NCBI GenBank assembly: GCA_945885475.1
Contig: CAMCYR010000010.1
Location: forward strand, 10,536 to 74,535
Length of the DNA: 64,000 bases
Direction of reading: 5' to 3'
From: Chitinophaga pinensis
GTDB lineage: Bacteria; Bacteroidota; Bacteroidia; 2-12-FULL-35-15
The translations under genes and the position numbers were made by a program. The notes beneath the pieces were generated by a model that was not told where the DNA came from, searched no databases, and saw only the letters and a list, made by a program, of their open reading frames with translations. Numbering within the stretch: the stretch's first letter is position 1; every line of letters starts with the position of its first letter. Positions 17,472-64,000 of this stretch are shown piece after piece.

Positions 17472-17540
17472 TTTATTTTCGTTTTAGATTGCCTCATTTC
17501 GCTCGCAACAACCTTGTTTTATTATTATTTTATAAGGTTA

Positions 17541-17755
17541 TTGACTCCGATCGAACTGACTTAGGACAAACATTTTTCTTACTTATATTAATCTCGTTCT
17601 CGACTCCGCTAGAACTGACTTAGGACAAACATTTTTCTTACTTATATTAATCTCGTTATTTACTCCGCTCGAACTGACAATCGACTCCGATCGAACTGAC
17701 TTAGGACAAACATTTTTCTTACTTAAAGGTTCTCGACTTCGAGCGGAGTCGAGAA
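17541..17755. repeat. Intergenic tandem repeat: three units of about 58 nt plus a partial copy and a terminal inverted copy
   Basis: gactccgatcgaactgacttaggacaaacatttttcttacttatattaatctcgtt repeated at 17543, 17601 and 17682. A partial copy (tactccgctcgaactgaca) lies at 17661. The inverted copy tctcgacttcgagcggagtcgaga lies at 17731-17754. Confidence 0.8.
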
Positions 17756-18131: not shown

Positions 18132-18806
18132 TTAGCTTCTTAAATTGCTTCTTTCCCCGAAAATAGAGCTTCCTACACGCACCAACGTGCTGCCGTTCTC
18201 AATTGCCAGCGGATAGTCAGAACTCATACCCATGCTCAAATTATTCAGTTCAACGTTGAATGCTGAAAAGCTTCTTGATTTATCATAAAAGCGTTTCAAC
18301 GACCTGAATTCATTCGCAATTTGCTCTTTTTGGCCGGTATTGGAGGCCATTCCCATAAAACCGGTGATCTTTATACTTTTTAGGACAATGAGCTCTTCTG
18401 AATTTATCAATTCTTCCGCTTCTGAAAAACTCAAACCGAATTTAGTGTCTTCATCCGCAATATAAATCTGCAATAAACAATTGATAATCCTGTTGTTTTT
18501 TTCTGCCTGTTTATTGATTTCTTGAAGTAATTTCAAACTGTCAACAGAATGTACCAAGGATATAAATGCTGCAATGTATTTGACTTTATTCGTTTGAAGA
18601 TGCCCAATCAAATGCCATTCAATGTCTTTGGGCAAGGCTTCCTGCTTTTCCACCAATTCTTGAACTTTGTTCTCTCCGAAAATCCTATGTCCTGCGTCAT
18701 ATACCTCCATCAGCTTATCAAGCGGCTGCGTTTTTGTTACCGCAATGAGCGTTACATGCGCTGGTAATGTTGATTTTATAGAGTGGAGATTCTCGCGTAT
18801 GGACAT
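18132..18806 (-). CDS. YggS family pyridoxal-phosphate homeostasis protein (PLPHP)
   Basis: LIAVTKTQPLDKLMEVYDAGHRIFGENKVQE and HLIGHLQTNKVK motifs. Confidence 0.9.
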   Translation of the reverse strand: MSIRENLHSIKSTLPAHVTLIAVTKTQPLDKLMEVYDAGHRIFGENKVQELVEKQEALPKDIEWHLIGHLQTNKVKYIAAFISLVHSVDSLKLLQEINKQAEKNNRIINCLLQIYIADEDTKFGLSFSEAEELINSEELIVLKSIKITGFMGMASNTGQKEQIANEFRSLKRFYDKSRSFSAFNVELNNLSMGMSSDYPLAIENGSTLVRVGSSIFGERSNLRS

Positions 18807-44440: not shown

Positions 44441-44636
44441 AATTTTCTTCGATTTCGAAATCTTGCAAAAATAGTCAATTGTTAGGTTGAAAGGAAATTC
44501 TAGAGGAGAAAAATGTTTTTAATTTGAAGAATTTTCATTAGAGGAACTGCCACTCTTTTTTTTGTCACTTCGAGTACTCTACTTTGATGTAGACATTATC
44601 GAGAAGTTCCAGTTGGAGACCATAATCCTCCATAAT

Positions 44637-44664
44637 GAGATCCCGTATCGTGGCACGGGATGAC
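44637..44664. repeat. Palindromic hairpin element (copy 1 of a dispersed 36-bp repeat)
   Basis: taatgagatcccgtatcgtggcacgggatgac. Near-identical copies occur at 56886, 57038 and 57190. Confidence 0.8.
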
Positions 44665-44692: not shown

Positions 44693-45817
44693 TTACCCTC
44701 TGCGGATTTTTTGAATCTGAATTTTTAATTCATTTTCAATTGTCTTTAATCGTCCCATTTCTGAGCTGGTTACCAAACTAATTGAAAGTCCTTTTTTGCC
44801 GGCACGTCCTGTTCGCCCGCTTCGGTGTGTGTAATATTCTAATTGTTCAGGTAGTTGATAATGAATAACATATTGAAGGTTATCGACATCAATACCTCTT
44901 GCTGCCATATCGGTTGCGACAAGTATCTGAAGCTTCTCATTTTTAAAAGCGCGCATTACTTTTTCGCGATCACGCTGCTGCAGATCTCCATGAATTGCTT
45001 CCGCTGAATGGTTGCGTGCGATCAGTTGTTTTGCCAAGGATTGGGTGCCGTCTTTTGTTTTACAAAATACAATTCCTCTTCCTTTGCCTTGCGTTCTTAA
45101 AAATTCAAGTAAGGTGTTTAATTTGTCTTTTGTATCTATACATTGAACATATTGGTGTTCGATATCACGGTTGACAATATTTTTTACATCCACTTCTACT
45201 TTAAATGCATCATCATCCATATAAGAACGGATGATTTCTTTTAAGGAGTCGGGAATGGTGGCGGAAAACAACCAGGTAAACCGTTGTCCGTTTGTTTGTT
45301 CCAATATCGTATCGATGCTTGCTTTAAAACCCATACTCAGCATTTCGTCAGCTTCATCCAACACAATTGTTTTTACATCTTTTAAACTAATAGCTTTCCG
45401 CTCTAAAAGATCGATCAGTCGTCCGGGAGTTGAGACAACTATATGAGTTGGACGACTCAGATTCTTGATTTGAATTTCGATGGGTTCACCGCCATAAACA
45501 GATTCTACGAATATGCGATTTGGATTGTATCTGGCAACGCGGAACAATTGTTTCGCGATCTGTTGTCCCAATTCACGAGTCGGACATAAGACCAATGCCT
45601 GAACAGACGAACTGCTCGTATCAATTTTTTGTAATAAAGGCAAGCCGAAAGCCATTGTTTTTCCTGTACCTGTCTGCGCCTGCCCTATAAAATCAAATCC
45701 TTCTTTTAATAAAAACGGGATCGATTTTGTTTGAATTTCTGTCGGGTCAAAAATATTATTTTCAATCAGACCTTTGATTAATGCGTCTGATATGCCAAGT
45801 TCGGAGAATGTTGCCAA
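44693..45817 (-). CDS. DEAD-box ATP-dependent RNA helicase
   Basis: Q-motif, GQAQTGTGKT, DEAD, SAT and HRSGRTGRAG motifs. Confidence 0.93.
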   Translation of the reverse strand: MATFSELGISDALIKGLIENNIFDPTEIQTKSIPFLLKEGFDFIGQAQTGTGKTMAFGLPLLQKIDTSSSSVQALVLCPTRELGQQIAKQLFRVARYNPNRIFVESVYGGEPIEIQIKNLSRPTHIVVSTPGRLIDLLERKAISLKDVKTIVLDEADEMLSMGFKASIDTILEQTNGQRFTWLFSATIPDSLKEIIRSYMDDDAFKVEVDVKNIVNRDIEHQYVQCIDTKDKLNTLLEFLRTQGKGRGIVFCKTKDGTQSLAKQLIARNHSAEAIHGDLQQRDREKVMRAFKNEKLQILVATDMAARGIDVDNLQYVIHYQLPEQLEYYTHRSGRTGRAGKKGLSISLVTSSEMGRLKTIENELKIQIQKIRRG

Positions 45818-48362: not shown

Positions 48363-48396
48363 AAAAAAACCTCGCAAATTGCGAGGTTTTTTTGTG
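48363..48396 (-). terminator. Intrinsic terminator immediately 3' of the tRNA
   Basis: cctcgc-aaatt-gcgagg stem flanked by an A7 run and a T7 run. Confidence 0.75.
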
Positions 48397-48468
48397 ACCG
48401 CGAAGGGATTCAAACCCCTAACCTTCTCATCCGTAGTGAGACACTCTATTCAGTTGAGCTACGCAGCC
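48395..48468 (-). tRNA. tRNA-Arg(ACG)-like gene with a non-canonical elbow (possible variant tRNA or pseudogene)
   Basis: Cloverleaf GGCTGCG-TA-GCTC-AACTGAATA-GAGT-G-TCTCA-CTACGGA-TGAGA-AGGTT-AGGGG-TTTGAAT-CCCTT-CGCGGTC-A. Anticodon ACG. G18G19 are replaced by AA and C56 by T. There are four G.U pairs. CCA is not encoded. Confidence 0.55.
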
Positions 48469-49620: not shown

Positions 49621-50009
49621 AACAGGCTTTTAATTTGTTTATCTGCTATGTTTTATTAAATTAGCTAAATAATTAGATAAAAAAAAACGCATACATACAT
49701 CTCTTGCCGATTGTTTTACTCCCCTGAGGCACAGAAAATACGAACTGGATTCATTGCATCCCTTATTCTATCGTATTGTATTTTTCAAAAACAAAAAACA
49801 AGTGTTTCACTAAAAAGAAAGGAAATTCAGTTTTATAAAAACAAAAAATACAACGTCTTACTTTCTTTCGCACGAAAGCTCACTTCTAATGCAACTAAAA
49901 GCGTTATTTGGAGTACAAATTATAGTAAATTTGTTAAAGGCAAAGGTGCATCAGTCTCCATCTTAAAATATAAATGACTTACAAATTATTAAAAATCAAA
50001 TCTTAATAA

Positions 50010-50999
50010 TTGAATAAACCTTTTTACATATTATTTTTTGTTTTGATATTGAGTGTGTTTCAATACAAGTATTCTATTGCCCAAACGAATCTTGTTTACA
50101 ATGGTGATTTTGAATTGTTCAGTACTTGTCCTAGTGGAACGGGAGGTTTAAGTGATTGCACAGGATGGTTAAATCCTACAACTGCTACCCCCGATTATTT
50201 TAATGCCTGTGCTGGTGCAAGTATTGTGGGGATTCCGAACAATGCAGGCGGTAGTCAAAATGCTTTTTCAGGTGACGGTTATGCCGGTTTTATTGCATTT
50301 GAATATGTTCCAGGTCCTACGAGTTGGTGGTTTGAATATATTCAGGGGGAATTTATTCAACCACTTTTAGCTGGCCATAAATACGAACTCACATTTTACG
50401 TGAGTTGTGGTGAAGGCTATGCTGACATAGCCATTTCAAAGATAGGAGCTTATTCTTCAGTATTGCCAATTTCTAGAACGGATTCCAATCCTTTTTTGCT
50501 AATACCCCAAGTTGTAAATTCAAATGGAGTCATATCAGATACGGCAGGTTGGACAAAAATATCGGGAACATTCATTGCATCAGGTAATGAACAATTCATT
50601 ACTCTCGGTTATTTTTCTGATACAATAATTACAGATTCATTAAGAATACAAACTTTTTCCTTCAATCCAACTTCTACTCCAAGAACCTATTATTACGTTG
50701 ATGGAATTAATGTGATCGATGTGACACCAGAAATTAATATACCAAACATTTTTTCTCCAAACGGAGATGGAGTTAATGATTTTCTAGATATTTCGAATTT
50801 TGGTCTTTCTGAGATTTCATTTTGCATTTTTAACAGATGGGGTATTAAGGTGTTTGAAACAAATAAGGTAGGCGATAAATGGGATGGAAGAACCACTTCA
50901 GGTATTAGCTGTAATGATGGAACGTATTTCTATGTATTGAAAGCAAAAGACGACAAAACGAATTATGATTTAAAAGGATTTATTCAATTGTTAAGATAA
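50010..50999 (+). CDS. T9SS type-B C-terminal sorting domain (gliding-motility-associated CTD) secreted protein
   Basis: Signal peptide. C-terminal ...IFSPNGDGVNDFL...GTYFYVLKAKDD...GFIQLL is the type-B CTD signature. Confidence 0.8.
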   Translation: MNKPFYILFFVLILSVFQYKYSIAQTNLVYNGDFELFSTCPSGTGGLSDCTGWLNPTTATPDYFNACAGASIVGIPNNAGGSQNAFSGDGYAGFIAFEYVPGPTSWWFEYIQGEFIQPLLAGHKYELTFYVSCGEGYADIAISKIGAYSSVLPISRTDSNPFLLIPQVVNSNGVISDTAGWTKISGTFIASGNEQFITLGYFSDTIITDSLRIQTFSFNPTSTPRTYYYVDGINVIDVTPEINIPNIFSPNGDGVNDFLDISNFGLSEISFCIFNRWGIKVFETNKVGDKWDGRTTSGISCNDGTYFYVLKAKDDKTNYDLKGFIQLLR

Positions 51000-51010
51000 A
51001 ACTTAACAAA

Positions 51011-53836
51011 ATGAAAAATAAATTATTGATTAATATTGCTCTATTGAGCATTGGTTTTAGCTTGCAACAAAATATTGTTGCTCAGCAAGTCCCCACGACT
51101 ACAAGCCCTGCTCTTCCAGCACTTAACGGAAGAGATGCTAGAGATTTTTGGTCTAGAGCAGGCAATTCAGGAATAGGAATTAATAACCAAAATAATATTT
51201 TTGGAACTCTAGGTAGTTTTAACTCACCTATCTATACACAAACCAATGGTGTATTTCGTGAAAAGCTTAATGGAGATTTTACCGGTGGAACCCAATACCC
51301 AATCAACGGTTATACATTTGCAACGGGAGTAAATACCAGTGGCTATTTATTGCTGGGACAAAATAATCCAACACAACCCGGTGGAGCATCTCCGCTATTG
51401 TATAATGCAAAGGGTGCATTTTCACTATTGCATTTAAATGGTCCACAAAGTACAATTCCAGGTGCAGGTTTCACACAAGAATTTGGATATCGCCCTTGGA
51501 TGAAAACTGGAATTACATTTACAGGAAACAATGACTTGATGTACTTTGGAGTGAGAGCTTTACCTTCTGCACCTCAAGACCAAACCGAAATGGTTGTTTC
51601 ATGGAGTGATAACTCAGGAGCAGGTGCTGGACCAGATGATTTCGCTTTTAGATTTATCGGGTTAGGCGCTGGCACAACAATAAGTACAACTTTAAGTGAT
51701 GAAAATGATTTAGACGGAAGACACATTGCCCGCTTTGCACCAACCGGTGAAATGGGTTTAGGAAATACTTTTGGATCGCCAGTAGGTATTTATGTTCGTC
51801 CTCAAAATTTACTTCACATGAGTTTGGATTTGCAAAAACAAGTTTTTATGCAAATTACAAATCAAAATGGAACGGGACAAAATGCTGGTGATGGACTTCT
51901 AGTTGGTTATGCTCCAACAAGTGCAATTAACCTAGAAGCTAGAATAAACCAACAAGAGAACGACCGTTTAAGTTTGTATGCAAATAACGGAGAGCGTATA
52001 CGAATTATGCAAATTGGCGCGTTGAATAATGGTAATGCTTTTAATCCAGGTTCTTTAGCGACAAACTTAACACGTATTGGAGTTAGTCATGACCCCGCAC
52101 AACCAGTTACACGTCCTTTAAGTTTGATGCATTTAGGTTATAATACTGGTGCGACAAATGATGGTTGGAGAAATTGGATGGACGTAGGAACATTTACAGC
52201 CAATGGAACAGATAATATGTATGTTGGATTAAAAAGAGAACCAACAGCTTTTCCAATTGATAGATTTGATGCTGTAATTAATTGGGGAGATAACAGTGGG
52301 CCAGTTGGGCCTTTTGCTATTGGTCCAGATAATCTTAGATTTATTTTTACATCTGCAACTGTTGGAACACCTGGTTTACCACCTTCAAATGGTGTAAACG
52401 GAGTTGAAGGAATGAGAATGACGCCTTCAACTAACGTAGCAGTTACAAATGCTCATGTGTGGACTGGAATTGGCGGTGATCCGACTGTTAATCAATATGG
52501 TCCAGGCGGAACAAGTATTAATCCAACACAAACATTAGAAGTGAATTCTTCTGAAGCTACTACAGTAGTTGGTGGAAGTAGTGGGTTGCGTTTTACGAAT
52601 TTAAATACAACTTCTCCTATAACTGCTACAAATCCTGGGTTAGGAGTTTTAGCTGTAGATGCAGATGGTGATGTTATTTATGTGCCAAGTGGTGGAAATG
52701 CTTTTGGAAATATCTGTGGTGCAGCACCCGTTCCTCTAACCAATAACTGGGAAATTCCTCAAGGAATAAATACATATAATTTTAGTGGAGTTGGCGCAGT
52801 AAATATTACTCGTCTAACAACTTGTGCACCTATCGCTAAATTTCTAGTTGATGATAATTTCTACGCTCGTACTTCCATTGTTAGAAACACTACCAATATA
52901 GCAACAAATATTGCTGGTGTTTTTATTGGTTCTGATGTTGCTAAAGTACATGCAATCGTTGTACCTAATGGAGGAGGCAATGTTGGATTCGGGGTTGGCA
53001 GTCCAAATACTACTTATAGATTACATGTGAATGGAGGGTTTCTTTTAAACGGAAATTTTGATGGAGCTGGAACCCAAACATACGTTTCTGACCAGCAATT
53101 TAAAACGAATATTGATTCTATTCCAAGTGCCTTAAATATTATTAATCAACTAGATCCAAAGTCATTCTATTTTGATACAACAAATGTTTATGGCATGAAT
53201 TTTAGCGATAAAAAACAGTATGGTTTAATTGCTCAAGATGTTGAACTTGTTTTGCCTGAATTGGTAAGCAATCTGAATAAGATAGAAGAGAGAGATAGTT
53301 TAGGTAATATTATTACTGCGTCTGTTTCTTATAAAGCATTAAACTATAACGCTTTTATTACAATTTTAATAAAAGGAATGCAAGAGCAACAATCAAAAAT
53401 TGATAGTTTAAATGATGAAAATGATGAGCATGATTCTATCAATGCTTCTTTACAAAACCAAATCAATTTATTAGCTGACATGATCAACTCTTGTTGCAGC
53501 AGTCATTCGATGCAAACAAACAACAACTCAAACACTTCTGTTACATCTCAGAATTTAGATTTGAAAGATGATCAGTCAATTGTTTTGGAACAAAACGTTC
53601 CTAACCCTTTTGCTGAACAAACAACTATCAATTATTTTTTACCAGACAATGTTGTAAAAGCACAAATGCTTTTTTACAATGCACAAGGTAAATTAATTCA
53701 ATCTGTAGATTTGAATGAAAGAGGAAAAGGTAACTTAAATGTTTTTGCTAGTGATTTAAGCAATGGTATTTATACTTATACTTTAGTAGCTGATGGAAAA
53801 GTTGTTGAGACTAAAAAAATGGTTAAACAACAATAG
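51011..53836 (+). CDS. T9SS type-A CTD cargo protein with an internal duplicated beta-rich domain and a phage tail-fibre-type intramolecular chaperone (peptidase S74-like) domain
   Basis: Signal peptide. Internal repeat (VSWSDNSGAGAGPDDFAFRFIG vs INWGDNSGPVGPFAIGPDNLRFIF). Chaperone-of-endosialidase-type motifs (YRLHVNGG, SDQQFKTNI...LNIINQLDPKSFYFD...YGLIAQDVELVLPELV). A coiled-coil follows, then C-terminal NPFAEQTTINY...GIYTYTLVADGKVVETKKMV. Confidence 0.8.
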   Translation: MKNKLLINIALLSIGFSLQQNIVAQQVPTTTSPALPALNGRDARDFWSRAGNSGIGINNQNNIFGTLGSFNSPIYTQTNGVFREKLNGDFTGGTQYPINGYTFATGVNTSGYLLLGQNNPTQPGGASPLLYNAKGAFSLLHLNGPQSTIPGAGFTQEFGYRPWMKTGITFTGNNDLMYFGVRALPSAPQDQTEMVVSWSDNSGAGAGPDDFAFRFIGLGAGTTISTTLSDENDLDGRHIARFAPTGEMGLGNTFGSPVGIYVRPQNLLHMSLDLQKQVFMQITNQNGTGQNAGDGLLVGYAPTSAINLEARINQQENDRLSLYANNGERIRIMQIGALNNGNAFNPGSLATNLTRIGVSHDPAQPVTRPLSLMHLGYNTGATNDGWRNWMDVGTFTANGTDNMYVGLKREPTAFPIDRFDAVINWGDNSGPVGPFAIGPDNLRFIFTSATVGTPGLPPSNGVNGVEGMRMTPSTNVAVTNAHVWTGIGGDPTVNQYGPGGTSINPTQTLEVNSSEATTVVGGSSGLRFTNLNTTSPITATNPGLGVLAVDADGDVIYVPSGGNAFGNICGAAPVPLTNNWEIPQGINTYNFSGVGAVNITRLTTCAPIAKFLVDDNFYARTSIVRNTTNIATNIAGVFIGSDVAKVHAIVVPNGGGNVGFGVGSPNTTYRLHVNGGFLLNGNFDGAGTQTYVSDQQFKTNIDSIPSALNIINQLDPKSFYFDTTNVYGMNFSDKKQYGLIAQDVELVLPELVSNLNKIEERDSLGNIITASVSYKALNYNAFITILIKGMQEQQSKIDSLNDENDEHDSINASLQNQINLLADMINSCCSSHSMQTNNNSNTSVTSQNLDLKDDQSIVLEQNVPNPFAEQTTINYFLPDNVVKAQMLFYNAQGKLIQSVDLNERGKGNLNVFASDLSNGIYTYTLVADGKVVETKKMVKQQ

Positions 53837-53872
53837 ATGGTATCAGGTATTTAGTATCAGGTATCAAATTAA

Positions 53873-53905
53873 AAAGTCCCGAGCTTAACACTCGGGACTT
53901 TTTAG
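53873..53905 (+). terminator. Intrinsic terminator after the T9SS gene pair (bidirectional with deaD)
   Basis: gtcccgag-cttaaca-ctcgggac stem flanked by an A5 run and a T5 run. Confidence 0.8.
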
Positions 53906-53921
53906 TTTATAACTTATCAGA

Positions 53922-55934
53922 TTAAAATTGTTTTCTAGGACGTCTTTCTCTTGAGAAATTACTTTTTCTATCTCCTCCTCCACTCGATTCGTTTTTAGAA
54001 TAGCTTTTTTCTGCAGATGAATTTTCATTCCCTTTAGATGAACTTCTTTCACGGTCGCTATAGGATTTGCGCTCCGTTGAAGGTCCTCTGTCTGAACGAT
54101 CACCATAAGACTTGCGTTCCCCGGAAGAACTTCCGCTAGAGCGATCACTATAAGATCTACGTTCACCAGAACCTGAACTTCTGCGTTCACCAGATCCGCT
54201 GTTACCTCTATAACCTCCTCTGTCGCTACCTCTATCACGGTTTCCACCGCCATATCCGCCTTTGCGTTCTGCACCACCAAATGATCTTCTGTTTCCACCT
54301 CCTTCATATCCACCACTTGATCTTCTTTCTCCACTGCTATCGCCACGAGATTCAATACGCACATTACGGTTGTTGTAACGTGCATTTTTGAATGTTCCCT
54401 GGATGATCTCAGCCGATTCAGTTTTCACTTCAACAAAAGAGAAACTACTTTTAACTTCAATGCTAACGATCGTTGCAATATCAACACCGGAAACTTCAGC
54501 AATGTACTGCTTCATTGCTGTGCTATCTAAACTATCTAATTCACCTAAGTTTATGAATAATTTAGTAATACCCGGCGTGGATGAAGAACGCTCTCTGTCT
54601 CTTGAAGCACCAGCATTTAGATCAGGAGCATTTTTGTAATAATCTAAAAAGCGGTTAAACTCAGTAGATACAAATCGCTTGATGATATCTTCTCTTGTCA
54701 GTTCTTTTAATTCATCGTAAATGTTTGGCAAGTAAGCTTCAATCGCTTCTTCATTTACTTCAACATTGTGAATTTTTTTCACCAAGCTGAACAATTGTTT
54801 TTCACACGCTTCGAATCCGGTTGGGATCGTACCTTGAATAAACTTCTTTTTGATGATACGTTCGATGATACGAATCTTTCCTACTTCTTTCATGTTGATG
54901 ATACAGATTGAAGTACCGGTTTTACCAGCACGAGCTGTTCTACCAGAGCGGTGCGTATAGTTTTCAATTTCGTCAGGCAAGTTATAATTGATAACGTGCG
55001 TAACATCATTCACATCAATACCACGCGCTGCAACATCAGTAGCTACAAGCATTTGCAAAGAACGAGAACGGTAACGTTTCATAACGTGATCGCGTTGTTG
55101 TTGAGATAAGTCACCGTGCAATGAATCCGCTCCGTAACCATCTTTAATTAATGCATCTGCAATTTCCTGTGTTTCGATACGTGTACGACAAAATACAATC
55201 GCAAAAATATCTGGATTTGAATCCGCGATACGTTTTAATGCTGCATATTTATCACGCGCTTGAACAACATAATAAATGTGTTCGATATTATCGTTACCTG
55301 AATTTTTTGTTCCTGCAGTAATTTCTACTGGTTTTTCCATGTAGTTTTTAGAGATACGCAAAACTTCATCTGGCATTGTTGCAGAAAACAACCAGGTGTT
55401 TTTTTCTTCTGGAGTTTGAGACAAAATGGTATCCAAATCTTCTTTGAATCCCATGTTCAACATCTCATCAGCCTCATCTAATACAGCGAAACGTACGTTA
55501 CTAAAGTTTACACGTCTGCGGTCAATCATATCACATAAACGACCAGGAGTTGCAACAACAATTTGTGCACCTTTCTTAATGTCGCGTGATTGATTATCGA
55601 TACTTGCTCCACCATATACAGCAACGATGTTTGCACCGTCAATGTATTTAGTATAACTCTGCAAATCGCGTGTAATTTGCATACACAGTTCTCGTGTAGG
55701 ACAAATAATTACAGCTTGTGTATCACGTGAAGTGAAATCTACAAGGTGTGTTAAAGGCAAGCCAAAGGCAGCCGTTTTTCCCGTTCCCGTTTGTGCCAAA
55801 GCAACTAAATCGGTGTTACCGGTTAATAATACAGGAATTACTTTTTCCTGGATAGGAGTTGGACTTTCAAAACCCAACTCTGTTACAGCTTTAACAATAG
55901 CATTGTTAAAGCCTAACGCTTCAAATTTGTTCAT
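53922..55934 (-). CDS. deaD: DEAD-box RNA helicase DeaD/CsdA-like with a DbpA RNA-binding domain and a long Arg/Ser/Gly-rich low-complexity tail
   Basis: AQTGTGKT, DEAD, SAT and HRSGRTARAG motifs. The C-terminal approximately 170 aa are (G/S)ERRS / RGG-like repeats. Confidence 0.92.
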   Translation of the reverse strand: MNKFEALGFNNAIVKAVTELGFESPTPIQEKVIPVLLTGNTDLVALAQTGTGKTAAFGLPLTHLVDFTSRDTQAVIICPTRELCMQITRDLQSYTKYIDGANIVAVYGGASIDNQSRDIKKGAQIVVATPGRLCDMIDRRRVNFSNVRFAVLDEADEMLNMGFKEDLDTILSQTPEEKNTWLFSATMPDEVLRISKNYMEKPVEITAGTKNSGNDNIEHIYYVVQARDKYAALKRIADSNPDIFAIVFCRTRIETQEIADALIKDGYGADSLHGDLSQQQRDHVMKRYRSRSLQMLVATDVAARGIDVNDVTHVINYNLPDEIENYTHRSGRTARAGKTGTSICIINMKEVGKIRIIERIIKKKFIQGTIPTGFEACEKQLFSLVKKIHNVEVNEEAIEAYLPNIYDELKELTREDIIKRFVSTEFNRFLDYYKNAPDLNAGASRDRERSSSTPGITKLFINLGELDSLDSTAMKQYIAEVSGVDIATIVSIEVKSSFSFVEVKTESAEIIQGTFKNARYNNRNVRIESRGDSSGERRSSGGYEGGGNRRSFGGAERKGGYGGGNRDRGSDRGGYRGNSGSGERRSSGSGERRSYSDRSSGSSSGERKSYGDRSDRGPSTERKSYSDRERSSSKGNENSSAEKSYSKNESSGGGDRKSNFSRERRPRKQF

Positions 55935-56297
55935 TAAATATTTATTAAGTTAATATTACAGTCGTCACTTACAAGGAAGTACATGTGAGTTGAATCCGAC
56001 AACTGTGTTATAAGGAGCCCACCATCATTGGTCTTGGGGCTTTTTCGGCAATGTTCTACAGTCGTAAATTCGTCTCAGCAAAAATCCTATTTTGACTAAA
56101 ACCGATGCAAAGATAGTATAATTAACTGAATAGATGCTATTTATGAAAAATAAAATGAAATCGTGTCTTCAATCTCTCTTCTATTTTTTTCTATTTTTTT
56201 TCTTGTTCAGCTTGAACGTATCTATTTTTAGGGTGTTTTGAGGTGTTTGTATAAAATTGTTTCTGCAAGAATCGTTACAGTATATCCCGCCTCCTAT

Positions 56298-56876
56298 TTA
56301 TTTACTATAAAAAGAAAATAATTTTCCATTCAGAATAGAAACGATCTTATTGTAAGAACGTGTAGTGACAAGCATTTCGTTCTGTTTAATCAAAAAGGGA
56401 AAGGGACGACTGAGTTGAACATAATTTTTATCTTTAATAAAAAACGCATCGAGTTGTGTAGTTTCACTTTCATCAAACTCTCCAATCAAATAGTTGTTGC
56501 TATTAAAGGATGTATCGATCTGCATGTCCGTATTCATTAAACAGCCTTTGTAATTTCCTTCTTTTACTTTAGTCGAATAATTAGAGTAGAAAAAATAAAC
56601 CGGACAGAAATTGAAATTGGCTTTAAAAGCAGCGATGATCGATCTGTTGTTGTTCTCCTGTTCTTTTCTGATTTCCTCTGCTTCTTTTTCTTTCCCCCTT
56701 TTTTTTAATCCGCTTATTTGCAATTCAGATGTTTTTAAGCGAACGAATAAAGCTCCGTTTTTTAACATAACAATGTTTGTTCGGGCATTATCTTTTGGTT
56801 TTACTTTTTTTTGAGCAAAGCAAACAGAAGAGATTAAAAGAAGAAAAATAGAAAGGTTGCGATTAAGTTTTTTCAT
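56298..56876 (-). CDS. Hypothetical secreted protein (start set at MKKLNRNL...; the track's upstream MPRHGISSLE extension is a translated hairpin repeat)
   Basis: Signal peptide [22 protein letters not shown]. The start codon lies inside repeat unit 1. Confidence 0.55.
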   Translation of the reverse strand: MKKLNRNLSIFLLLISSVCFAQKKVKPKDNARTNIVMLKNGALFVRLKTSELQISGLKKRGKEKEAEEIRKEQENNNRSIIAAFKANFNFCPVYFFYSNYSTKVKEGNYKGCLMNTDMQIDTSFNSNNYLIGEFDESETTQLDAFFIKDKNYVQLSRPFPFLIKQNEMLVTTRSYNKIVSILNGKLFSFYSK

Positions 56877-57316
56877 TTCTAATGATGAGATCCCGTGTCG
56901 TGGCACGGGATGACTGTTAATTAATTATACTTGTCACACAAAGCGTAATTAGTAGAAAAAAAAGCAGGCCTGTAAGCCGGGTTCTGTGGAGTTCTATCAT
57001 TTATCTAGATCTGATTAAGTTTTTTCATTTCTAATGATGAGATCCCGTGTCGTGGCACGGGATGACTGTTAATTAATTATAATTGTCACCCAAAGTGTAA
57101 TTAGTAGAAAAAAAAGCAGGCCTGTAAGCCGGGTTCTGTCGAGTTCTATCATTTATCTGGATCTGATTAAGTTTTTTCATTTCTAATGATGAGATCCCAT
57201 GTCGTGGCACGGGATGACTGTTAATTAATTATAATTGTCACACAAAGCGTAATTAGTAGAAAAAAAAGCAGGCCTGTAAGCCGGGTTCTGTCGAGTTCTA
57301 TCATTTATCTAGATCT
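56861..57316. repeat. Tandem triplication of a 152-bp unit (56861-57012, 57013-57164, 57165-57316). Each unit holds the rnpB 3' end, a T8 run, a spacer, a palindromic hairpin and the ATG of the downstream gene
   Basis: Three head-to-tail copies with about 4-6 substitutions between copies. Each contains gcaggcctgtaagccgggttctgt (the reverse complement of the RNase P RNA 3' end) and gagatcccgtgtcgtggcacgggatgac. Confidence 0.9.
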
Positions 57317-57613
57317 TGCATCACTACAAGACTCAAGCAACCTACCCTCCGAAATCGAGCGAGCAGCTCTAATGCTTCGGTTTATTTGGTCTTTCAACTC
57401 CCAAGGTTTACCCGAAATAATTGTCGCCAACTATTTCCGTGAGCTCTTACCTCACATTTTCACCATCACCAAGTATTGCTACAAGGCTGTATTTTTCTGT
57501 GGCACTTGCTGTCTTCGTATTGCTACGAATCCTTCCTGTTAGGAAGTGGGATGCTCTGTGTTGCCCGGACTTTCCTCTCCGTATTGCTACGCAGCGATAG
57601 AACGGCCTGCTCC
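57268..57613 (-). ncRNA. rnpB: RNase P RNA (bacterial type A)
   Basis: Reading the minus strand: GGAGAGGAAAGTCCGGGC (P4), ACAGAAAAATACAGCC, GGTAAGAGCTCAC, GGGTAAACC...CAAATAAACCG, AGGGTAGGTTGCTTGAG and 3' ACAGAACCCGGCTTACAGGCCTGC. P1 (GCAGGCC/GGCCTGC) and P2 (GTTCTATCG/CGACAGAAC) can pair. Confidence 0.88.
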
Positions 57614-57706
57614 GTAAAGGTAGTCAATTAGTTGATTGCGGGAAGGTTTAATGCCGAATTTAGAATACTCAACATTCTTTGCCTTTGTCCGGATTTCAAA
57701 ATATAT

Positions 57707-58765
57707 TTAATTAATGATTATTTCTGTTGCACCGAAACCGTATTTAGAATACGAACCGTCGTGCATTTTTAGGTTATTGTAAGAAGCGATGATTGCCCTG
57801 ACCTCTTGTTTTAAGCGCCCATTCCCTACTCCATGGATCACTACTAAACTTCTGTATCGGTCGTTGATCGCTTTATCCAGTACATTTTGGAAGTGCTTCA
57901 ACTGGATCTGAATGATTTCGGCATTACTCATTCCCGAATAGTTTTCCATCAACTCTTCGATGTGAAGATCAATTTCCATTTCGTAAGCTGGATTATTGCT
58001 CACATGCGGTTTTGATTTTTTTGATGTCTCCATCTTCGTTTGTTTCTGAAAGAGGATCTTCGACAGGTCCATATCCGGGGGATACAGTTCTTCTGATTTG
58101 ATTCCATTTATTTCCGAGACATTTATGATGAGCGATTTTTCTGAGATAAAACGGTTCTCAGAAAAAGCATTCTCTTTGTATAATTTTATAGGCTTTAACT
58201 TTATCACTTCGCTGATCGGTAACTGATGCGTATGTTCTTTTTCATCAAAAAAAAGTGCGTCAATTTTAAAGGTGGAACTTTCACTTAACAATTTCCGGTC
58301 AATGGTCTCGATCAATTCATGTTCAAATGCATCGATATTTCCCGTTTCAAGTGTTTTAAATCCGTCATTACTGAAGATCGAATAGGTGAATAATACTTGA
58401 TATGATGTGTTGTTGATCATCCAGACGTTAAAGTCGGAATGCGCAATATCGTTTTCTTTTTCAGGAGAAAATGCCAGATAAACACCTTCCGGCTCCACTA
58501 TTTTTGAAGGTTTCAGGTTTTTCTTTTCAAGTAGAGGAACCGATTGTTCTTCCACATATTTAACGGAGGATTGAATTCTTGATTCGTCATAGATCAGCAG
58601 TAATTGTGAAATAGCAAAGGGTAATTCAAAACCGTCTTCAATGGTGATTCCCAGGGTGGTCTTGTTAATTATCTTACTAACAATTCCTTCTCCTTTTTCA
58701 TTCAGAAACCTGACCTTATCACCAATTTTAAAATTCATCCTACAAAAATAAAACTTTAAAATCAT
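57707..58765 (-). CDS. Smr (MutS2 C-terminal-like) domain protein, DUF2027 family
   Basis: C-terminal Smr domain (EIDLHIEEL...VIHGVGNGRLKQEV). The start is probably the MNFKIGDKVRF Met, 9 codons downstream of the track's start. Confidence 0.7.
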   Translation of the reverse strand: MILKFYFCRMNFKIGDKVRFLNEKGEGIVSKIINKTTLGITIEDGFELPFAISQLLLIYDESRIQSSVKYVEEQSVPLLEKKNLKPSKIVEPEGVYLAFSPEKENDIAHSDFNVWMINNTSYQVLFTYSIFSNDGFKTLETGNIDAFEHELIETIDRKLLSESSTFKIDALFFDEKEHTHQLPISEVIKLKPIKLYKENAFSENRFISEKSLIINVSEINGIKSEELYPPDMDLSKILFQKQTKMETSKKSKPHVSNNPAYEMEIDLHIEELMENYSGMSNAEIIQIQLKHFQNVLDKAINDRYRSLVVIHGVGNGRLKQEVRAIIASYNNLKMHDGSYSKYGFGATEIIIN

Positions 58766-58783
58766 TTTTGTACATTTGAAAAG

Positions 58784-59728
58784 ATGAAACTTCGTATTTT
58801 CTTTTATACTTCTATCACTTCTGTCGTATTGCTTTTTTTAAGTTGCAGCAAAGATGTTCCGGTTACAAGCTACAAAACCCAAAATGTAATTGTGGTGGTG
58901 GTGGATGGTGCACGCTTCTCTGAAACGTGGGGTGAACCTACTCATCAGTATATTCCACATCGCTCCGCAATGCTTGCGCAAGGCGTTTTTTGTAGCAATT
59001 TTTATAATAACTGTGTGACTTCAACAACTCCCGGCCATACGTCCATTTGTACAGGCGTTTGTCAGAATATTAATAATGCTGGCGCTGAATATCCTGCTCA
59101 TCCCTCTATCTTTCAATACTGGTTAAAAGCATATAAGCGCCCCAATGACGAAGCGTGGATCATTACAACGAAAGATAAATTAGAAGTACTTTCGGATTGC
59201 ACAGACAGCAAATGGAAAGGTCGCTGCCGACCGATGACTGACTGTGGCGTGAATGGTTTGGGAACAGGATACCGCGAAGACAGTACGACCTTTAAAAGTG
59301 TGTATTCAAAACTTAGTTTGAAACACCTTCGTTTAACACTTGTGAATTTTAAACAACCCGATGCTGCTGGTCATGCAAACAATTGGGGAGCCTATTTGCA
59401 AGGAATCGTTGATACGGATGAGTATATTTATAAATTATGGCAGAAAATCCAAGAAAACGAATTTTATAAAGACCGCACCACCATGATTGTTACAAACGAT
59501 CATGGAAGACATACATCCGGACATTTAGATGGCTTTGTTTCGCATGGTGATGCTTGCGAAGGTTGCAGACACATTGAGTTTTTTGCAATCGGTCCGGATT
59601 TTAAACAGAATTTTATTTGTGATATGCCCTACGATCAGGTAGACATAAATAATACTATCGCTGAATTGATGGGCTTCTCCGCTCCTACTTCCACCGGAAA
59701 AGTAATGCGCGCTATTTTTAAAAATTAA
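58784..59728 (+). CDS. Alkaline-phosphatase-superfamily metalloenzyme-like lipoprotein (specificity unknown)
   Basis: Lipobox LFLSCSK. The VVVVDGARFSE metal-ligand motif and NDHGRH...HGD are typical of AP, NPP and iPGM-type cores. Confidence 0.5.
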   Translation: MKLRIFFYTSITSVVLLFLSCSKDVPVTSYKTQNVIVVVVDGARFSETWGEPTHQYIPHRSAMLAQGVFCSNFYNNCVTSTTPGHTSICTGVCQNINNAGAEYPAHPSIFQYWLKAYKRPNDEAWIITTKDKLEVLSDCTDSKWKGRCRPMTDCGVNGLGTGYREDSTTFKSVYSKLSLKHLRLTLVNFKQPDAAGHANNWGAYLQGIVDTDEYIYKLWQKIQENEFYKDRTTMIVTNDHGRHTSGHLDGFVSHGDACEGCRHIEFFAIGPDFKQNFICDMPYDQVDINNTIAELMGFSAPTSTGKVMRAIFKN

Positions 59729-61828
59729 TTAAAGGATCAATTCCAGCGCGCCTTCATCCTTCACCGCATAATATTCCTGATCTAAAGCTGTGCATTCTTC
59801 TTTCCATTTCCCGATCTTGCTGTCGGAATTGGATGAATCAAAAATGAGCATTTTTGCATGAAAGATTTGTTTTATTTCCTGCACAGTCATCTTCACATTT
59901 CCACTCACAATTAGGTAATCTAGACTTAATGGTTCGCTGTCCGGGGATTTGAATTCAATCGGATATTGCAAGATCATGATGCGTTTATCTAGGAATTGAA
60001 TAAAACCGGATGTTAACTGAAAGGTTTCTGTTTTAAAATCAGCTGAAATTACCCGCGAATCAGTAACTCCCAAGTCCCACCAATTGTGCACGATGTGAAA
60101 CGATAATCTACTTTTGTTTTTTGCAAAAACGGAATCTGTCAGCAACACTGTATTTTTTCCGTTAATAAAATCGATTGCAGACGTTTTAGGAATGTTATAA
60201 ACCATAATTTTCTTTTGCTTGTATTCCGTATACTGCTCAAGGGTTTGGCTGACAAGAATGATAATACCGAACGACAACGACAACATCAGGTATTTGTATT
60301 GCCTTGTGCTTGTATAAACAAACAATAAAATAGTCAAACCATAAAGCAACCAGGTTTCAAAAACTGAAATGGATATTCCTTGTAGCACTGAAAATGGTAG
60401 CGATTCAATCCATTTAACGGAAAAATTTAAGAACCAGATAAGCCATGTAAAGGCTATTGCTAAATAGTTAACGACAAAGGGAATAGGAGAAAAAGTGAAT
60501 ACAGCAATACCGATATAAAGGATAAGTGTAGATATCGGTATAACAATCAGATTTGATAGTAGAAAGTAATTCGGAAATTGGTGAAAGTACTGTAATCCCA
60601 AAGGAAATGTTGCGATCTGAGCAGCAATTGACACAGATGTTATCTTCCAGATCTGATCGAGCAACCAATTGTCGATTTCGAACCATGCATGGATTTTTGG
60701 CTGGATGTATACAATACCTACAACGGCTAGGTATGAAAGTTGAAACCCTACTTCCATTATCAGATAAGGATTGAACAGCAATAATAAAATAGCTGAAGCG
60801 GCAAGTGTATTATAAATATTAGTATGCCTGCTAAATGTTTTTGCAACAATAATAAAACTAAACATTGTTGCCGCTCTTAAAACGGAAGGAGACAAACCTG
60901 TGAGTGCTGCATAAAACCAAAGAAACAAAATTAGAAGAATCGCTTTAATGATTCTACCTCTTTTATGTTTATCTAAAAAAAACAACATCCAGCTGAAAAC
61001 CATATAAACAATGGCTACATGCAATCCAGAAACGGACAATACATGAAGTGCTCCTGTATTGGAATATGCCGAAATGATATCCGCATCTAACTTATCGGTG
61101 TAGCCCAACAGCAATGCTGCTCCAACAGATAATTCATCGCCTGTCAATTGATTCTCCTGAAACACGTCTAATAAATTTTTTCTCAATTGGATGCAACGGC
61201 TCATTATGAAATCGCCTGAATTGCATCCAGCATTCATCCAGCCTTTATCGGATACGTATGCCTGTTGCCAGATATTATGGAAAGAAAGAAAACGTTTGTA
61301 ATTGAACTCACCGGGATTTTGAGGAGCGGGTACTTCTTTAAATTGAGTTTGGATTATCAGCTCGTCACCGTATTTTAAATTAAGCGCAGCATCGTTCTTT
61401 TTGAAATGCAGCATTGCTTTTCCTTTGCTTCTCCTCCATTCATTGCCATCTCTTACTGCAAGAACTTCTACCACCACTTTCAACGATTTTTCTTTTTCAA
61501 TATATGAATCAGCCAGCCTGGCATACACAATATTGTTTTCGGAACAGTACTTGGAAAAATGATTTGGAGAATATTTCTGTGTATGAAAAAGAGTTAGCTG
61601 ATAAGCAAAAATAATAAGCGAGGTGTTTAATAGAAGACCAAACCAAAAAGACCTGCGGTAGACAGTATTGAATTTGGGGATTAAAACGATTGCCGCTATT
61701 ACCACAAAAAGGCAGGAAGCGAATACGAGGATTGTATGCAGCTGAACAGAGAAATAAACAGCAAGTACGATACCTACTAAAAAAGGAAGCAGCAAACGAA
61801 CTAAAGGAGCCTGATTCCAGACTTTCAT
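59729..61828 (-). CDS. comEC: ComEC/Rec2 family DNA internalisation channel protein (no C-terminal metallo-beta-lactamase domain)
   Basis: N-terminal DUF4131-like TM region and the competence domain (ALHVLSVSGLHVAIV). Confidence 0.8.
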   Translation of the reverse strand: MKVWNQAPLVRLLLPFLVGIVLAVYFSVQLHTILVFASCLFVVIAAIVLIPKFNTVYRRSFWFGLLLNTSLIIFAYQLTLFHTQKYSPNHFSKYCSENNIVYARLADSYIEKEKSLKVVVEVLAVRDGNEWRRSKGKAMLHFKKNDAALNLKYGDELIIQTQFKEVPAPQNPGEFNYKRFLSFHNIWQQAYVSDKGWMNAGCNSGDFIMSRCIQLRKNLLDVFQENQLTGDELSVGAALLLGYTDKLDADIISAYSNTGALHVLSVSGLHVAIVYMVFSWMLFFLDKHKRGRIIKAILLILFLWFYAALTGLSPSVLRAATMFSFIIVAKTFSRHTNIYNTLAASAILLLLFNPYLIMEVGFQLSYLAVVGIVYIQPKIHAWFEIDNWLLDQIWKITSVSIAAQIATFPLGLQYFHQFPNYFLLSNLIVIPISTLILYIGIAVFTFSPIPFVVNYLAIAFTWLIWFLNFSVKWIESLPFSVLQGISISVFETWLLYGLTILLFVYTSTRQYKYLMLSLSFGIIILVSQTLEQYTEYKQKKIMVYNIPKTSAIDFINGKNTVLLTDSVFAKNKSRLSFHIVHNWWDLGVTDSRVISADFKTETFQLTSGFIQFLDKRIMILQYPIEFKSPDSEPLSLDYLIVSGNVKMTVQEIKQIFHAKMLIFDSSNSDSKIGKWKEECTALDQEYYAVKDEGALELIL

Positions 61829-61868
61829 AATATACTGATGGATGAAACGCGAATGTAGGAAACTATGC

Positions 61869-61912
61869 TTTACTTCATTAAAATAAATTCATATTTATTT
61901 TAATGAAGTAAA
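61869..61912. promoter_or_regulatory. Perfect 19-bp inverted repeat (6-bp spacer) 41-84 bp upstream of the comEC start. Candidate operator or hairpin
   Basis: tttacttcattaaaataaa-ttcata-tttattttaatgaagtaaa followed by T7. Confidence 0.5.
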
Positions 61913-62178
61913 TTTTTTTCTGTTTCACTTAACACATCCTGTTTTCAGATCAAAACTATGTGACTATCTTTTTTTCTTGATAAGTTTAGAAACCTTCGCA
62001 CTTCTTTTCCACGTCTGCTAATGTAAACTTCCCCAAAGATCAGCGGGATAACCAATCGTTGATTTTCGAATGAATTTTAGCATTCAGCGTATTTTCCATT
62101 GTTTATTTTTTTTGATTGTTTGAACACTGCAAACGTAGGAATGTTTATCTGTATTCTATATGAGCGTTGTCATTTCGG

Positions 62179-62904
62179 CTATTTCCAGCGGTACTTAAAA
62201 CTTTCGTATTTCCCTTTTATTGCCATTACCAATTCGAACTGACTGGCATTTTGGATGAATTCATCACTTAAATTGAGGTATTTTACAAATGCTTCAAACT
62301 CATCATCCTTCAGATCAATTACTTCGTATTTCACATATAAGTGAAATAGATCCTTCAAGATATCACGTTTAAGATCTTCATTTTCCCATTCAGCAACTTT
62401 CTGTTTTGATTTTGAAAACTTGCTGAAGCGCTCATACAATGCCGTGATTGGACTTTCAATTGCATTTATACCTTGAGTAGAATAGCTTTTTCGGAGCCCC
62501 AATTTATCAATATCGTTTTGAATCTCATTCAAACTCCGATTCGCGAAAACACTTACTTCTTTTAATTCAAATTGAAGCTTATGTAAAGCAATCTCGAAAT
62601 ACGAATTTCCATTTGCAAGTGAGTCCTTAAAACAAATAGATCTCACTCTAAATCCGATAGCAGAAAACAGGATGGTATCGGCTGGTTGGATCAGTAGTGC
62701 GAATTTCCCTTCAGCATCCGCAAATGTTCCATTATTTGTTCGTTTGTTAATAATCATTGTCCGGGTAAGTGGCAGCGACTTATTGTCTTTATCGAAAACT
62801 TTCCCCGATATTTTTATTGTTACTTGTGCATCAGCGGAATGTTGAGCCAGCGAAAATGTTATAATTGTAAAGAATTGGAATAAAAAATAAAGTCTTTTTT
62901 TCAT
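62179..62904 (-). CDS. Carboxypeptidase-regulatory-like (CarboxypepD_reg) domain secreted protein
   Basis: Signal peptide. N-terminal VTIKISGKVFDKDNKSLPLTRTMIINKRTNNGTFADAEGKFAL has the CarboxypepD_reg fold signature. Confidence 0.6.
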   Translation of the reverse strand: MKKRLYFLFQFFTIITFSLAQHSADAQVTIKISGKVFDKDNKSLPLTRTMIINKRTNNGTFADAEGKFALLIQPADTILFSAIGFRVRSICFKDSLANGNSYFEIALHKLQFELKEVSVFANRSLNEIQNDIDKLGLRKSYSTQGINAIESPITALYERFSKFSKSKQKVAEWENEDLKRDILKDLFHLYVKYEVIDLKDDEFEAFVKYLNLSDEFIQNASQFELVMAIKGKYESFKYRWK

Positions 62905-62934
62905 TGAGCTAGAAACGCAGTTTATCCGTATTTA

Positions 62935-63618
62935 TTATGACTTTGTTTCTACTTCGAACACTTCAACCACATCGTCTTCCTTTTTCTTTTTCTTTTTCCT
63001 GATGAGTTTCGCTTTTGATTCTTCTTTACGGAGTAAGCGTTCAATGTTTTTCTGATGTGTTATCAATACCATTATGGCAATCAAGATAGAAAAGATGATC
63101 AGTGATGGTACTTTCGTTTGAAACACATAAATAATGATAACCGGAAAACAGATTGCAGAAATCATAGAACTCAAAGAAACATAACTCGAAATAAGTAAAA
63201 TAATAATAAAAATACCTATACTGATCAATGCCCCATAAGGATGAACTCCCAAAACAATACCCAATAATGTAGCAATTCCTTTTCCACCTCTGAATGACGC
63301 AAATACCGGAAAAATATGGCCGACCAAAGAAGCAATACCCAAAACTAATTCCAAATTAATGAACTGATTGGAATTGGGCAGGTACGGACTAAAATCCGCA
63401 AGACTAACAGCCGCGAGTCCTTTCAAAATATCAATTAACAACACAGGGATACCTGCTCTTTTCCCAAGTACTCTGAACGTGTTGGTAGCACCGGCATTTC
63501 CGCTGCCGTACTCACGCACATCAATCTTGTAGAAAAACTTCCCGATCCATACCGCAGTTGGTATGGAGCCCAGTAAGTATCCTCCTAAAAGCAATAATAT
63601 ATTAGAAATGTTTATCAC
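62935..63618 (-). CDS. plsY: Glycerol-3-phosphate acyltransferase PlsY
   Basis: GSGNAGATN, FKGGKG motifs and Lys-rich C-terminal tail. Confidence 0.9.
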   Translation of the reverse strand: MINISNILLLLGGYLLGSIPTAVWIGKFFYKIDVREYGSGNAGATNTFRVLGKRAGIPVLLIDILKGLAAVSLADFSPYLPNSNQFINLELVLGIASLVGHIFPVFASFRGGKGIATLLGIVLGVHPYGALISIGIFIIILLISSYVSLSSMISAICFPVIIIYVFQTKVPSLIIFSILIAIMVLITHQKNIERLLRKEESKAKLIRKKKKKKEDDVVEVFEVETKS

Positions 63619-63986
63619 TATTCTTCTGCGCTTTGAGTTTTACGTAAGAATTGAATTTTCTTTGCTGCTGTTGTGATATTGAAATTATAATTCGGCTCTT
63701 TCTTTTCTTTATCACCATCTTTTTGACGTTTTTCAGGCTTCAATTCCTTGATCGCCGTATTGAATGCTTCATTAGATGAAATGGCCAACATGGTTCCTCT
63801 TGTATAGTTAAAAAAGTACCAGTTGTTTGCATCCAATTCTAAATAAATATTAAGGATGTCGCCACCGCGTTTCTTGATGATCTCTACTCTGCCGTCCACA
63901 TATTTATTGATCTGTGTTTTATTGATATTCCCGATTCCCAATTTACCGGAGGATGTATACGAACGTGTTTCCTTGTTCCATTTCAT
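63618..63986 (-). CDS. Hypothetical protein. The reading frame stays open to the window edge, so it may be 5'-truncated
   Basis: Its stop overlaps the plsY start by 1 nt (operon). No recognised domain. Confidence 0.45.
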   Translation of the reverse strand: MKWNKETRSYTSSGKLGIGNINKTQINKYVDGRVEIIKKRGGDILNIYLELDANNWYFFNYTRGTMLAISSNEAFNTAIKELKPEKRQKDGDKEKKEPNYNFNITTAAKKIQFLRKTQSAEE

Positions 63987-64000
63987 TTTTACGTCGGTCA

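Follow-up and report, generated by a model that had tools for sequence, protein, structure and literature searches.

Organization of the rnpB locus

We examined a window of 64,000 nucleotides (positions 10,536 to 74,535 of contig CAMCYR010000010.1, GenBank assembly GCA_945885475.1) in which rnpB, the gene for the RNA component of ribonuclease P (RNase P), is followed on the minus strand by a tandem array of 152-bp units and then by a gene for a 192-amino-acid (aa) protein. The organism is an uncultured member of the Bacteroidota, and its nearest named records are metagenome-assembled genomes (MAGs) from freshwater and groundwater. The features of the locus are collected in Table 1.

An initial annotation, made from the letters of the window alone, had described an intact rnpB and three head-to-tail units of 152 bp, and both descriptions proved right. 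The covariance model RF00010 matches rnpB over its full length (model positions 1-367) with 256.6 bits against a gathering score of 100 and an E value of 1.9e-82. This full-length match, together with the presence of both strands of helix P4, places the gene in bacterial class A. The mature 3' end lies at about 57268, and a run of eight T residues (T8) then occupies 57260-57267. Tandem Repeats Finder (TRF) gave the array a score of 870 with 3.0 copies, 97% matches and 0% indels. The same three copies were recovered in register by a repeat search (family D1), with pairwise identities of 97-98%. Such contiguous head-to-tail repetition, far beyond chance, is what is expected of a tandem duplication or a variable-number tandem repeat (VNTR), and alignment of the copies gave the same coordinates and anatomy.

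Along the minus strand, the unit starts at position 57316 with AGATCTAGAT, which we number as unit position 1, 49 nt before the end of rnpB. Bases 1-4 are the end of the 3' arm of helix P18 and the other bases of this starting sequence belong to the joining region J18/2. The rnpB-derived part (unit positions 1-49) contains the 3' strands of P2, P4 and P1 and is followed by the T8 run, a 44-nt spacer, a hairpin and ATGAAAAAACTTAATC, the first 16 nt of the open reading frame (ORF) of the 192-aa protein. The junctions read GATGCA|AGATC, CTTAATC|AGATC and CTTAATC|GCAACC, and alignment of the breakpoints revealed no microhomology at the array junction. The RNA fold of the unit is unremarkable (z -1.46). 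Scans for sigma-70 promoters and terminators around the unit stayed at background level, and the Bacteroidetes -7 motif TAnnTTTG occurs zero times in the window-type unit, with no conserved candidate across lineages. As no promoter can be recognized in the unit, there is no evidence for promoters multiplied by copy number.

The start codons at the ends of the first two copies are decoys, both of which had been read initially as heads of the peptide MKKLNQI followed by a stop. The decoy starts do exist, and only the second one encodes this peptide. The first runs for 35 codons because the substitution T6C turns its TAG stop into CAG. Its product has no homologue in the protein collection, and a query spanning the junction found no other junction candidates there. 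The rnpB-derived sequence CTAGATAAATGATAG contains stops in all three frames.

The 192-aa protein belongs to no Pfam or NCBIfam family in the domain search and matched no PDB fold in the structure search. A confident structure prediction (AlphaFold mean predicted local distance difference test score 83.7) gives an alpha/beta protein, and its orthologues (P0121-P0180) form a small Bacteroidia family. The orthologue lies directly after rnpB in 8/8 other lineages with fetched DNA, at spacers of about 15 to 170 nt, and also in 2 more lineages judged from ORF translations. In some relatives the ORF starts merely 15-25 nt or so past the T run, a distance that suggests, as a speculation, read-through from rnpB or an unconventional promoter.

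Table 1 Features of the rnpB locus in the window
Feature	Position	Strand	Basis
Intact RNase P RNA gene, bacterial class A	57261..57613	-	Rfam RF00010
Tandem array of three 152-bp units	56861..57316	-	TRF, repeat search
Copy 1: genuine rnpB 3' end (49 nt), T8, spacer, hairpin with G-T mismatch (C118T), decoy start 1	57165..57316	-	Alignment, variant table
Copy 2: pseudo rnpB 3' fragment 57116-57164, T8, spacer, hairpin, decoy start 2; T6C, G69A, T75G	57013..57164	-	
Copy 3: pseudo rnpB 3' fragment 56964-57012, followed by T8, spacer and perfect hairpin, with the true start of the 192-aa ORF; G25C, T83G	56861..57012	-	
Hairpin element ATCCCGTGCCACGACACGGGAT	56890..56911	-	Pattern search; DNA fold -7.9 kcal/mol, z -4.1
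Decoy ORF 1, MKKLNQIQINDRTRQNPAYRPAFFSTNYTLGDNYN, 35 codons from ATG, reads through junction 1	57073..57180	-	ORF list, sequence
Decoy ORF 2, MKKLNQI-stop, terminated at junction 2 by the TAG in rnpB-derived ATCTAGAT	57005..57028	-	Sequence
True downstream gene, 192-aa protein with N-terminal signal peptide	56298..56876	-	ORF list, domain and structure searches

Copy number of the array in other assemblies

Metagenome assemblies of the same species were found by exact-protein look-ups of the flanking genes, in which the 202-aa, 343-aa, 314-aa and 670-aa forms were matched and the 192-aa and 352-aa forms matched nothing. The flanks of these contigs are 99-100% identical to the window. The junction CTTAATC|AGATC is present in at least six other same-species assemblies from several studies, and the duplication must be real because this junction is impossible in a single-copy locus. 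The view that the duplication is genuine and not very recent, which the initial annotation had taken from the substitutions, is borne out.

Copy number differs between populations of the species, as counted in short-read metagenome assemblies that give lower bounds. Among loci with at least 99% flank identity, one copy was found in L006, two in L008 and three in L003 (all full) and in the window, with hints of four or more. L010 has at least two copies. L005 has at least two copies plus a gap, and both L004 and L005 contain 100-N gaps inside the array. The single copy of L006, a SPAdes contig with a coverage of 4.9, equals the consensus of all copies. The Logan contigs L009 and L012 start exactly 30 nt ahead of the unit end, which is presumably the graph branch expected at the junction for k=31.

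Sample ERZ27280309 yielded two MEGAHIT k141 contigs, L001 and L007, that break inside the array from opposite sides. L007 corresponds to window positions 49922-57097 at 100%, and its last copy is identical to copy 3 of the window. L001 corresponds to positions 57076-64000 at 99.94%, with all 4 mismatches inside the array. The partial second copy of L001 (C6, G69, T75, G83) conflicts with the penultimate copy of L007 and with copy 2 of the window (A69, G75, T83). From these variants, the population may have at least four copies, or be a mixture of strains, or the middle copy of the window may be a chimera into which two middle copies were collapsed. The copy number of three in the window should be taken as not secure.

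It is highly improbable that the array is an assembly artefact in which a single unit was spuriously expanded. The unit is longer than the largest k-mer of short-read assemblers, copy 2 of the window is at odds with the contig ends from the matching sample, and several scaffolds have N gaps within the array, all of which would fit such an error. However, the impossible junction recurs in contigs from independent studies, the copies bear distinct substitutions, and two independent assemblies of another species have a junction particular to it. We rejected the artefact on the strength of the junctions in independent assemblies and the copy-specific substitutions.

Extra rnpB fragments and mosaic variants

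The initial annotation had proposed that the array supplies three alternative 3' ends or terminators for rnpB, and several results speak against this. The window contains one 5' strand of P4 versus three 3' strands. The two extra fragments lack the 5' strands of the catalytic core and fall outside class A. Even in a permissive Rfam scan of positions 56700-57350, the sole RNase P report was the 3' end of the genuine gene. No terminator-like site (a GC-rich hairpin with a T run) was found in 56600-57800, and the T8 runs of copies 2 and 3 are not intrinsic terminators. They stand without an adjacent hairpin because the terminator stem of the real rnpB is the long-range P1 helix, whose 5' strand is present once.

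The substitutions point the same way. Across the assemblies, unit positions 1-49 are free of substitutions in all eight first-or-only copies. The changes in later copies are T6C, G25C, G36T (in P4) and G44T (in P1), along with C33T (in P4) in L022 and T10A in L010. The confinement of these changes to non-first copies, including changes in the P4 and P1 core, and the missing P1 partner argue that the extra pieces are pseudo-fragments. They are unconstrained pseudo-sequences and not alternative 3' ends of rnpB. The change in the distal copy had been said to disrupt P2. In the Rfam alignment, the P2 strand is GAUAGAA at unit positions 15-21, and G25C (CTCGAC to CTCCAC) sits in the unpaired linker between P2 and P4. 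T6C of the adjacent copy falls in J18/2.

G25C, T75G, T6C and C118T recur at different copy positions in different assemblies, and the G69A/T75G combination of window copy 2 is the allele of the single-copy sister lineage L014. In the hairpin, copy 2 of L003 has one compensatory pair (G107A with C118T), and the last copy of L008 has two disruptive changes. The mosaic of recurring variants is what unequal crossing-over and conversion between copies and alleles would leave behind, and it does not fit three copies that diverge quietly in place.

The hairpin element

The hairpin consists of an 8-bp stem, ATCCCGTG-CCACGA-CACGGGAT, and its other two positions in the array are 57042-57063 and 57194-57215 (minus strand). 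The pattern ATCCCGTGCCACGAYACGGGAT has 4 matches in the window versus 0.00 expected, three in the array and one at 44640-44661 (minus strand). The element has no Rfam family, and the pattern matched nothing in viral contigs.

The second locus reads GTCATCCCGTGCCACGATACGGGATCTCAT with its flanks (44632-44664). A 374-aa ORF (44693-45817, minus strand), whose gene in L004 has DEAD and Helicase_C domains, stops 32 nt before it, and the gene at 42905-44440 (minus strand) follows about 200 nt downstream. A DEAD-box helicase gene also follows the 192-aa gene of the array. The hairpin may be a regulatory or leader motif that the two loci have in common, or a repeat akin to repetitive extragenic palindromic (REP) elements.

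Among relatives, L014 and L024 have kept the hairpin together with its 3' flank GGGATCTCATCATTAGAAATG immediately ahead of the 192-aa gene. L020 has a diverged form there, an inverted pair with 33 nt between the copies (L020 2200-2277), and in L024 (345-395) the loop of the element is interrupted by a second small hairpin (GTCCCGAA...TTCGGGGAC). The translated N-terminal extension of P0139 implies a hairpin upstream of that gene as well. L016, L018, L023 and L025 lack the element. The inverted pair in L020 and the loop insert in L024 are reminiscent of mobile palindromic elements.

The element bears a resemblance, not an established kinship, to REP-like elements in being a short, GC-rich, imperfect palindrome in intergenic DNA, found at two loci in 64 kb and kept across species. 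Unlike them, it precedes one and the same gene by a constant distance in several lineages, which is more like a leader. The initial annotation had also suggested that the hairpin generated the duplication. The element is not placed for this role because it lies inside the unit, at least 29 nt from the ends, and it is absent from the separate 222-bp duplication of L016 described below. As far as these comparisons go, the hairpin appears to be a conserved leader or a dispersed palindromic element and not the cause of the duplication.

Relatives and a parallel duplication

The region downstream of rnpB was compared in relatives, with four loci from a scan of genome contigs with the downstream protein and at least one locus (L022) from a scan of metagenome contigs. 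The comparison revealed both single-copy lineages and a separate duplication. A single copy is found in L014/L015 (about 92% nucleotide identity to the window), L018 (about 90%), L020, L023, L024 and L025-L028, and these relatives have exactly one unit and no scar. P0123 and P0140 also appear to be single copy from their ORF translations, in which the called ORFs begin at the rnpB-derived ATGATAGAAC (MIELDRTRL...) and run into the protein. The same AGATCTAGAT motif or its variant AATCTAGAT is present in eight single-copy lineages. L022, at 96% nucleotide identity, has a junction of equal length and other sequence, CTTAAT-ACT-ATCTAGAT.

L016, L017 and L019 represent two independent assemblies of one freshwater MAG species, in which Smr is 73% and the 192-aa protein 67% identical to the window. 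Their array has a period of 222 bp and 2.0 copies, which measure 224 and 222 bp and are 91% identical. At (A)AGATCTAGAT, where the unit begins, the rnpB nucleotide coincides with that of the window within a 1-nt ambiguity. The unit runs as far as GTGAAGTACTTTTTTTACAT(A), which is 20-21 nt inside the orthologous ORF, compared with 16 nt in the window. Its spacer is not alignable with that of the window, and in its second rnpB fragment conserved J18/2 positions have decayed (CTAAATAGACG).

On the protein tree, P0131 of L016 is distant from P0121 of the window species, with single-copy lineages between. In each species, the ends of the decoy ORFs match the species' own gene start (MKKLN... versus VKYFFYI...), and these N-termini share only MK. 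Decoy ends would not be refreshed from the true start because unequal crossing-over is expected to keep the true start in the last copy. Decoys that match their own species would then have been made after the N-termini diverged, that is, in independent duplications. We consider it probable, on this reading of the sequences, that the two duplications are independent.

If so, the coincidence of the breakpoints needs a cause. The left breakpoints agree within 0-1 nt and the right ones within 4-5 nt, for which the expectation under uniform placement is well below 1% by a rough estimate, not a computation. Candidate causes are the overlapping palindromes AGATCT/TCTAGA/GATC, the P18 DNA hairpin at the left breakpoint, breakage downstream of a highly transcribed gene, and selection for this unit in particular. 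By eye, no microhomology or inverted complementarity between left and right breakpoints was found in the window species or L016. The right breakpoints revealed no shared motif, and no recombinase was found. The parallel duplication suggests a breakpoint hot spot or selection. It is, together with the copy-number variation between populations, the most informative fact about the locus.

Proposed origin and alternatives

It is likely that the locus has undergone a genuine, locus-specific tandem duplication and is now a small, copy-number-variable array of the VNTR or minisatellite type, one that is probably near-neutral. We infer the mechanism of its formation, as well as its near-neutrality. 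In the founding event, a homology-independent (illegitimate) join would have connected base 16 of the downstream ORF to rnpB at the P18/J18/2 boundary, which would have duplicated the intervening 152 bp. RecA-type unequal homologous recombination and conversion between copies and strain alleles might then have expanded, contracted and shuffled the array, so that populations now differ in having 1, 2, 3 or perhaps more copies. The working rnpB would use the first copy only, and the working 192-aa gene would be headed by the last copy only. The other rnpB fragments and start codons would be non-functional, drifting by-products, and the extra copies would at most add a short upstream ORF and leader to read-through transcripts.

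Some observations weigh against this account. All data come from short-read assemblies, and since the 152-bp unit exceeds the k-mers of the assemblers, the copy numbers are lower bounds; the single copy of L006, at a coverage of 4.9, could be a collapse. A near-neutral accident also leaves unexplained why the L016-type species has a separate duplication from the same rnpB nucleotide, and why its copies have persisted to 9% divergence.

The shared starting nucleotide might be accommodated by a breakpoint hot spot, which we regard as possible and put forward tentatively. Here AGATCTAGAT, at the 3' foot of P18 with its palindromes AGATCT/TCTAGA/GATC, would be a preferred site of breakage or template switching, for instance after restriction or topoisomerase cutting, or where the DNA hairpin of P18 stalls a fork behind a highly transcribed gene, and the same tandem duplication would recur there. 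The shared left nucleotide and the close right breakpoints of the two species are consistent with it, as are the third junction type in L022, the decoy ends that favour independent events and the position of P0131 on the tree beyond single-copy lineages. However, there are two or three events only. The right breakpoints show neither sequence similarity nor microhomology, no enzyme is identified, the eight lineages bearing the motif are single copy, and the junction of L022, of the same length as that of the window, could be a mutated copy. A hot spot would concern the origin of the array and is compatible with the near-neutral VNTR as the best explanation of the later events. In its broader form, in which the P18-J18/2 junction is a recurrent breakpoint with independent duplications in at least two freshwater Bacteroidota genera, by sequence-specific breakage or recombination or by selection for an array of leaders and upstream ORFs, we view the proposal with some doubt.

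That the array is itself selected for regulation is rather unlikely. Each copy has a hairpin, a start codon and an upstream ORF of 7-9 codons ending at an rnpB-derived TAG or TAA, so that leader copies might tune the downstream gene and changes in copy number might switch its expression slowly and heritably. Arrays are present in two genera, by recurrence or persistence, the diverged copies of L016 among them, and all three junction types keep the decoy ORF in frame with ATC-TAG/TAA. The synteny of rnpB and the gene is conserved in several lineages together with the hairpin leader, and the G107A/C118T pair in L003 is compensatory. On the other side, a single species contains one-, two- and three-copy forms side by side, and the majority of related lineages have one copy. 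No promoter motif was found in the unit, the shared frame weighs little as CTAGATAAATGATAG stops all three frames, the last hairpin of L008 is disrupted twice, and the stop of the upstream ORF is lost at junction 1 of the window. Far less probable still is a remnant of site-specific integration, in which duplicated attachment sites would remain from an element targeting the rnpB 3' end. The direct repeats past the intact gene, with their truncated 3' pieces of a stable RNA and a left boundary at a palindrome, do recall such sites. However, only host spacer lies between the repeats, each of which spans the host intergenic region into the next host ORF, and the single-copy relatives are unscarred. 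No integrase is present within 5 kb or more on either side, the neighbours of the array being Smr/DUF2027, phosphodiesterase, ComEC, DEAD-box helicase and type IX secretion system (T9SS) cargo genes. We found no literature on rnpB as an integration site. Attachment-site repeats were rejected for the contiguity of the copies, their content of host spacer and the next ORF start, and the lack of a neighbouring integrase.

Other features of the window

A second tandem repeat, with a 59-bp unit, 2.4 copies and 90% matches, lies at 17537-17678 between the convergent ORFs 16977-17471 (plus strand) and 18132-18806 (minus strand). Its core, GACTCCG.TCGAACTGAC, recurs just after it as another partial copy. 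An insertion/deletion polymorphism of about 4.2 kb corresponds to window positions 49641-53858, where L004 and L009 join 53859 directly to 49640. These two contigs are without the 941-aa Peptidase_S74/Por_Secre_tail gene and the 314-aa CHU_C gene, both of which stand beside the DEAD-box helicase gene in the window, L003, L005, L006 and L007. The helicase itself (53922-55934, minus strand) is a 670-aa DEAD-box/DbpA protein whose last 150 or so residues form a low-complexity tail enriched in G, R, S and E, in which repeats such as SGERRS, GGYGGG and SDR occur. Tails of this composition are typical of the RNA-binding tails of cold-adapted helicases. A tRNA gene (RF00005, 55.5 bits) at 48395-48468 (minus strand) is unrelated to the array.

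Relation to known systems and significance

The literature search returned no report of a tandem duplication of the rnpB 3' end in bacteria and nothing relevant on Bacteroidetes tandem repeats. The closest likeness is to intergenic minisatellites and VNTRs, such as the mycobacterial interspersed repetitive units (MIRU-VNTRs), which are head-to-tail repeats of tens to a few hundred bp between genes, with strain-variable copy number, and whose units may give rise to short ORFs and overlap the ends or starts of the genes on either side. MIRUs form a family dispersed over many loci, whereas the unit described here is unique to its locus and built from the locus's own sequence, with merely 1 to 3 or 4 copies seen. 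The array also follows the duplication-amplification model in its homology-free founding join, its homology-driven expansion and contraction, its unstable and polymorphic state, and its retention of one intact copy of each flanking gene. Classical tandem duplications, which are under selection for gene dosage, extend over kilobases to hundreds of kilobases; the present unit differs in that it holds no complete gene. Genomic islands are flanked by direct repeats of the 3' ends of tRNA or transfer-messenger RNA (tmRNA) genes, and these attL/attR repeats superficially resemble the array in that an intact stable-RNA gene is followed by truncated direct 3' copies. The array differs from them in having no mobile DNA and no integrase, and in its strictly contiguous repeats that reach into the neighbouring host ORF.

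The array is a well-documented small structural polymorphism that, in an uncultured bacterium, adjoins the gene of an essential ribozyme. Short-read assemblies break at rnpB because of it, and its pseudo rnpB 3' fragments and spurious small ORFs may lead to miscalls in annotation pipelines. If the parallel duplication is independent, the two species would provide a natural case of recurrent, position-specific tandem duplication. If this proves true, the locus would offer a system for studying how duplication breakpoints are chosen in bacteria, or how leader copy number might serve as an expression switch.

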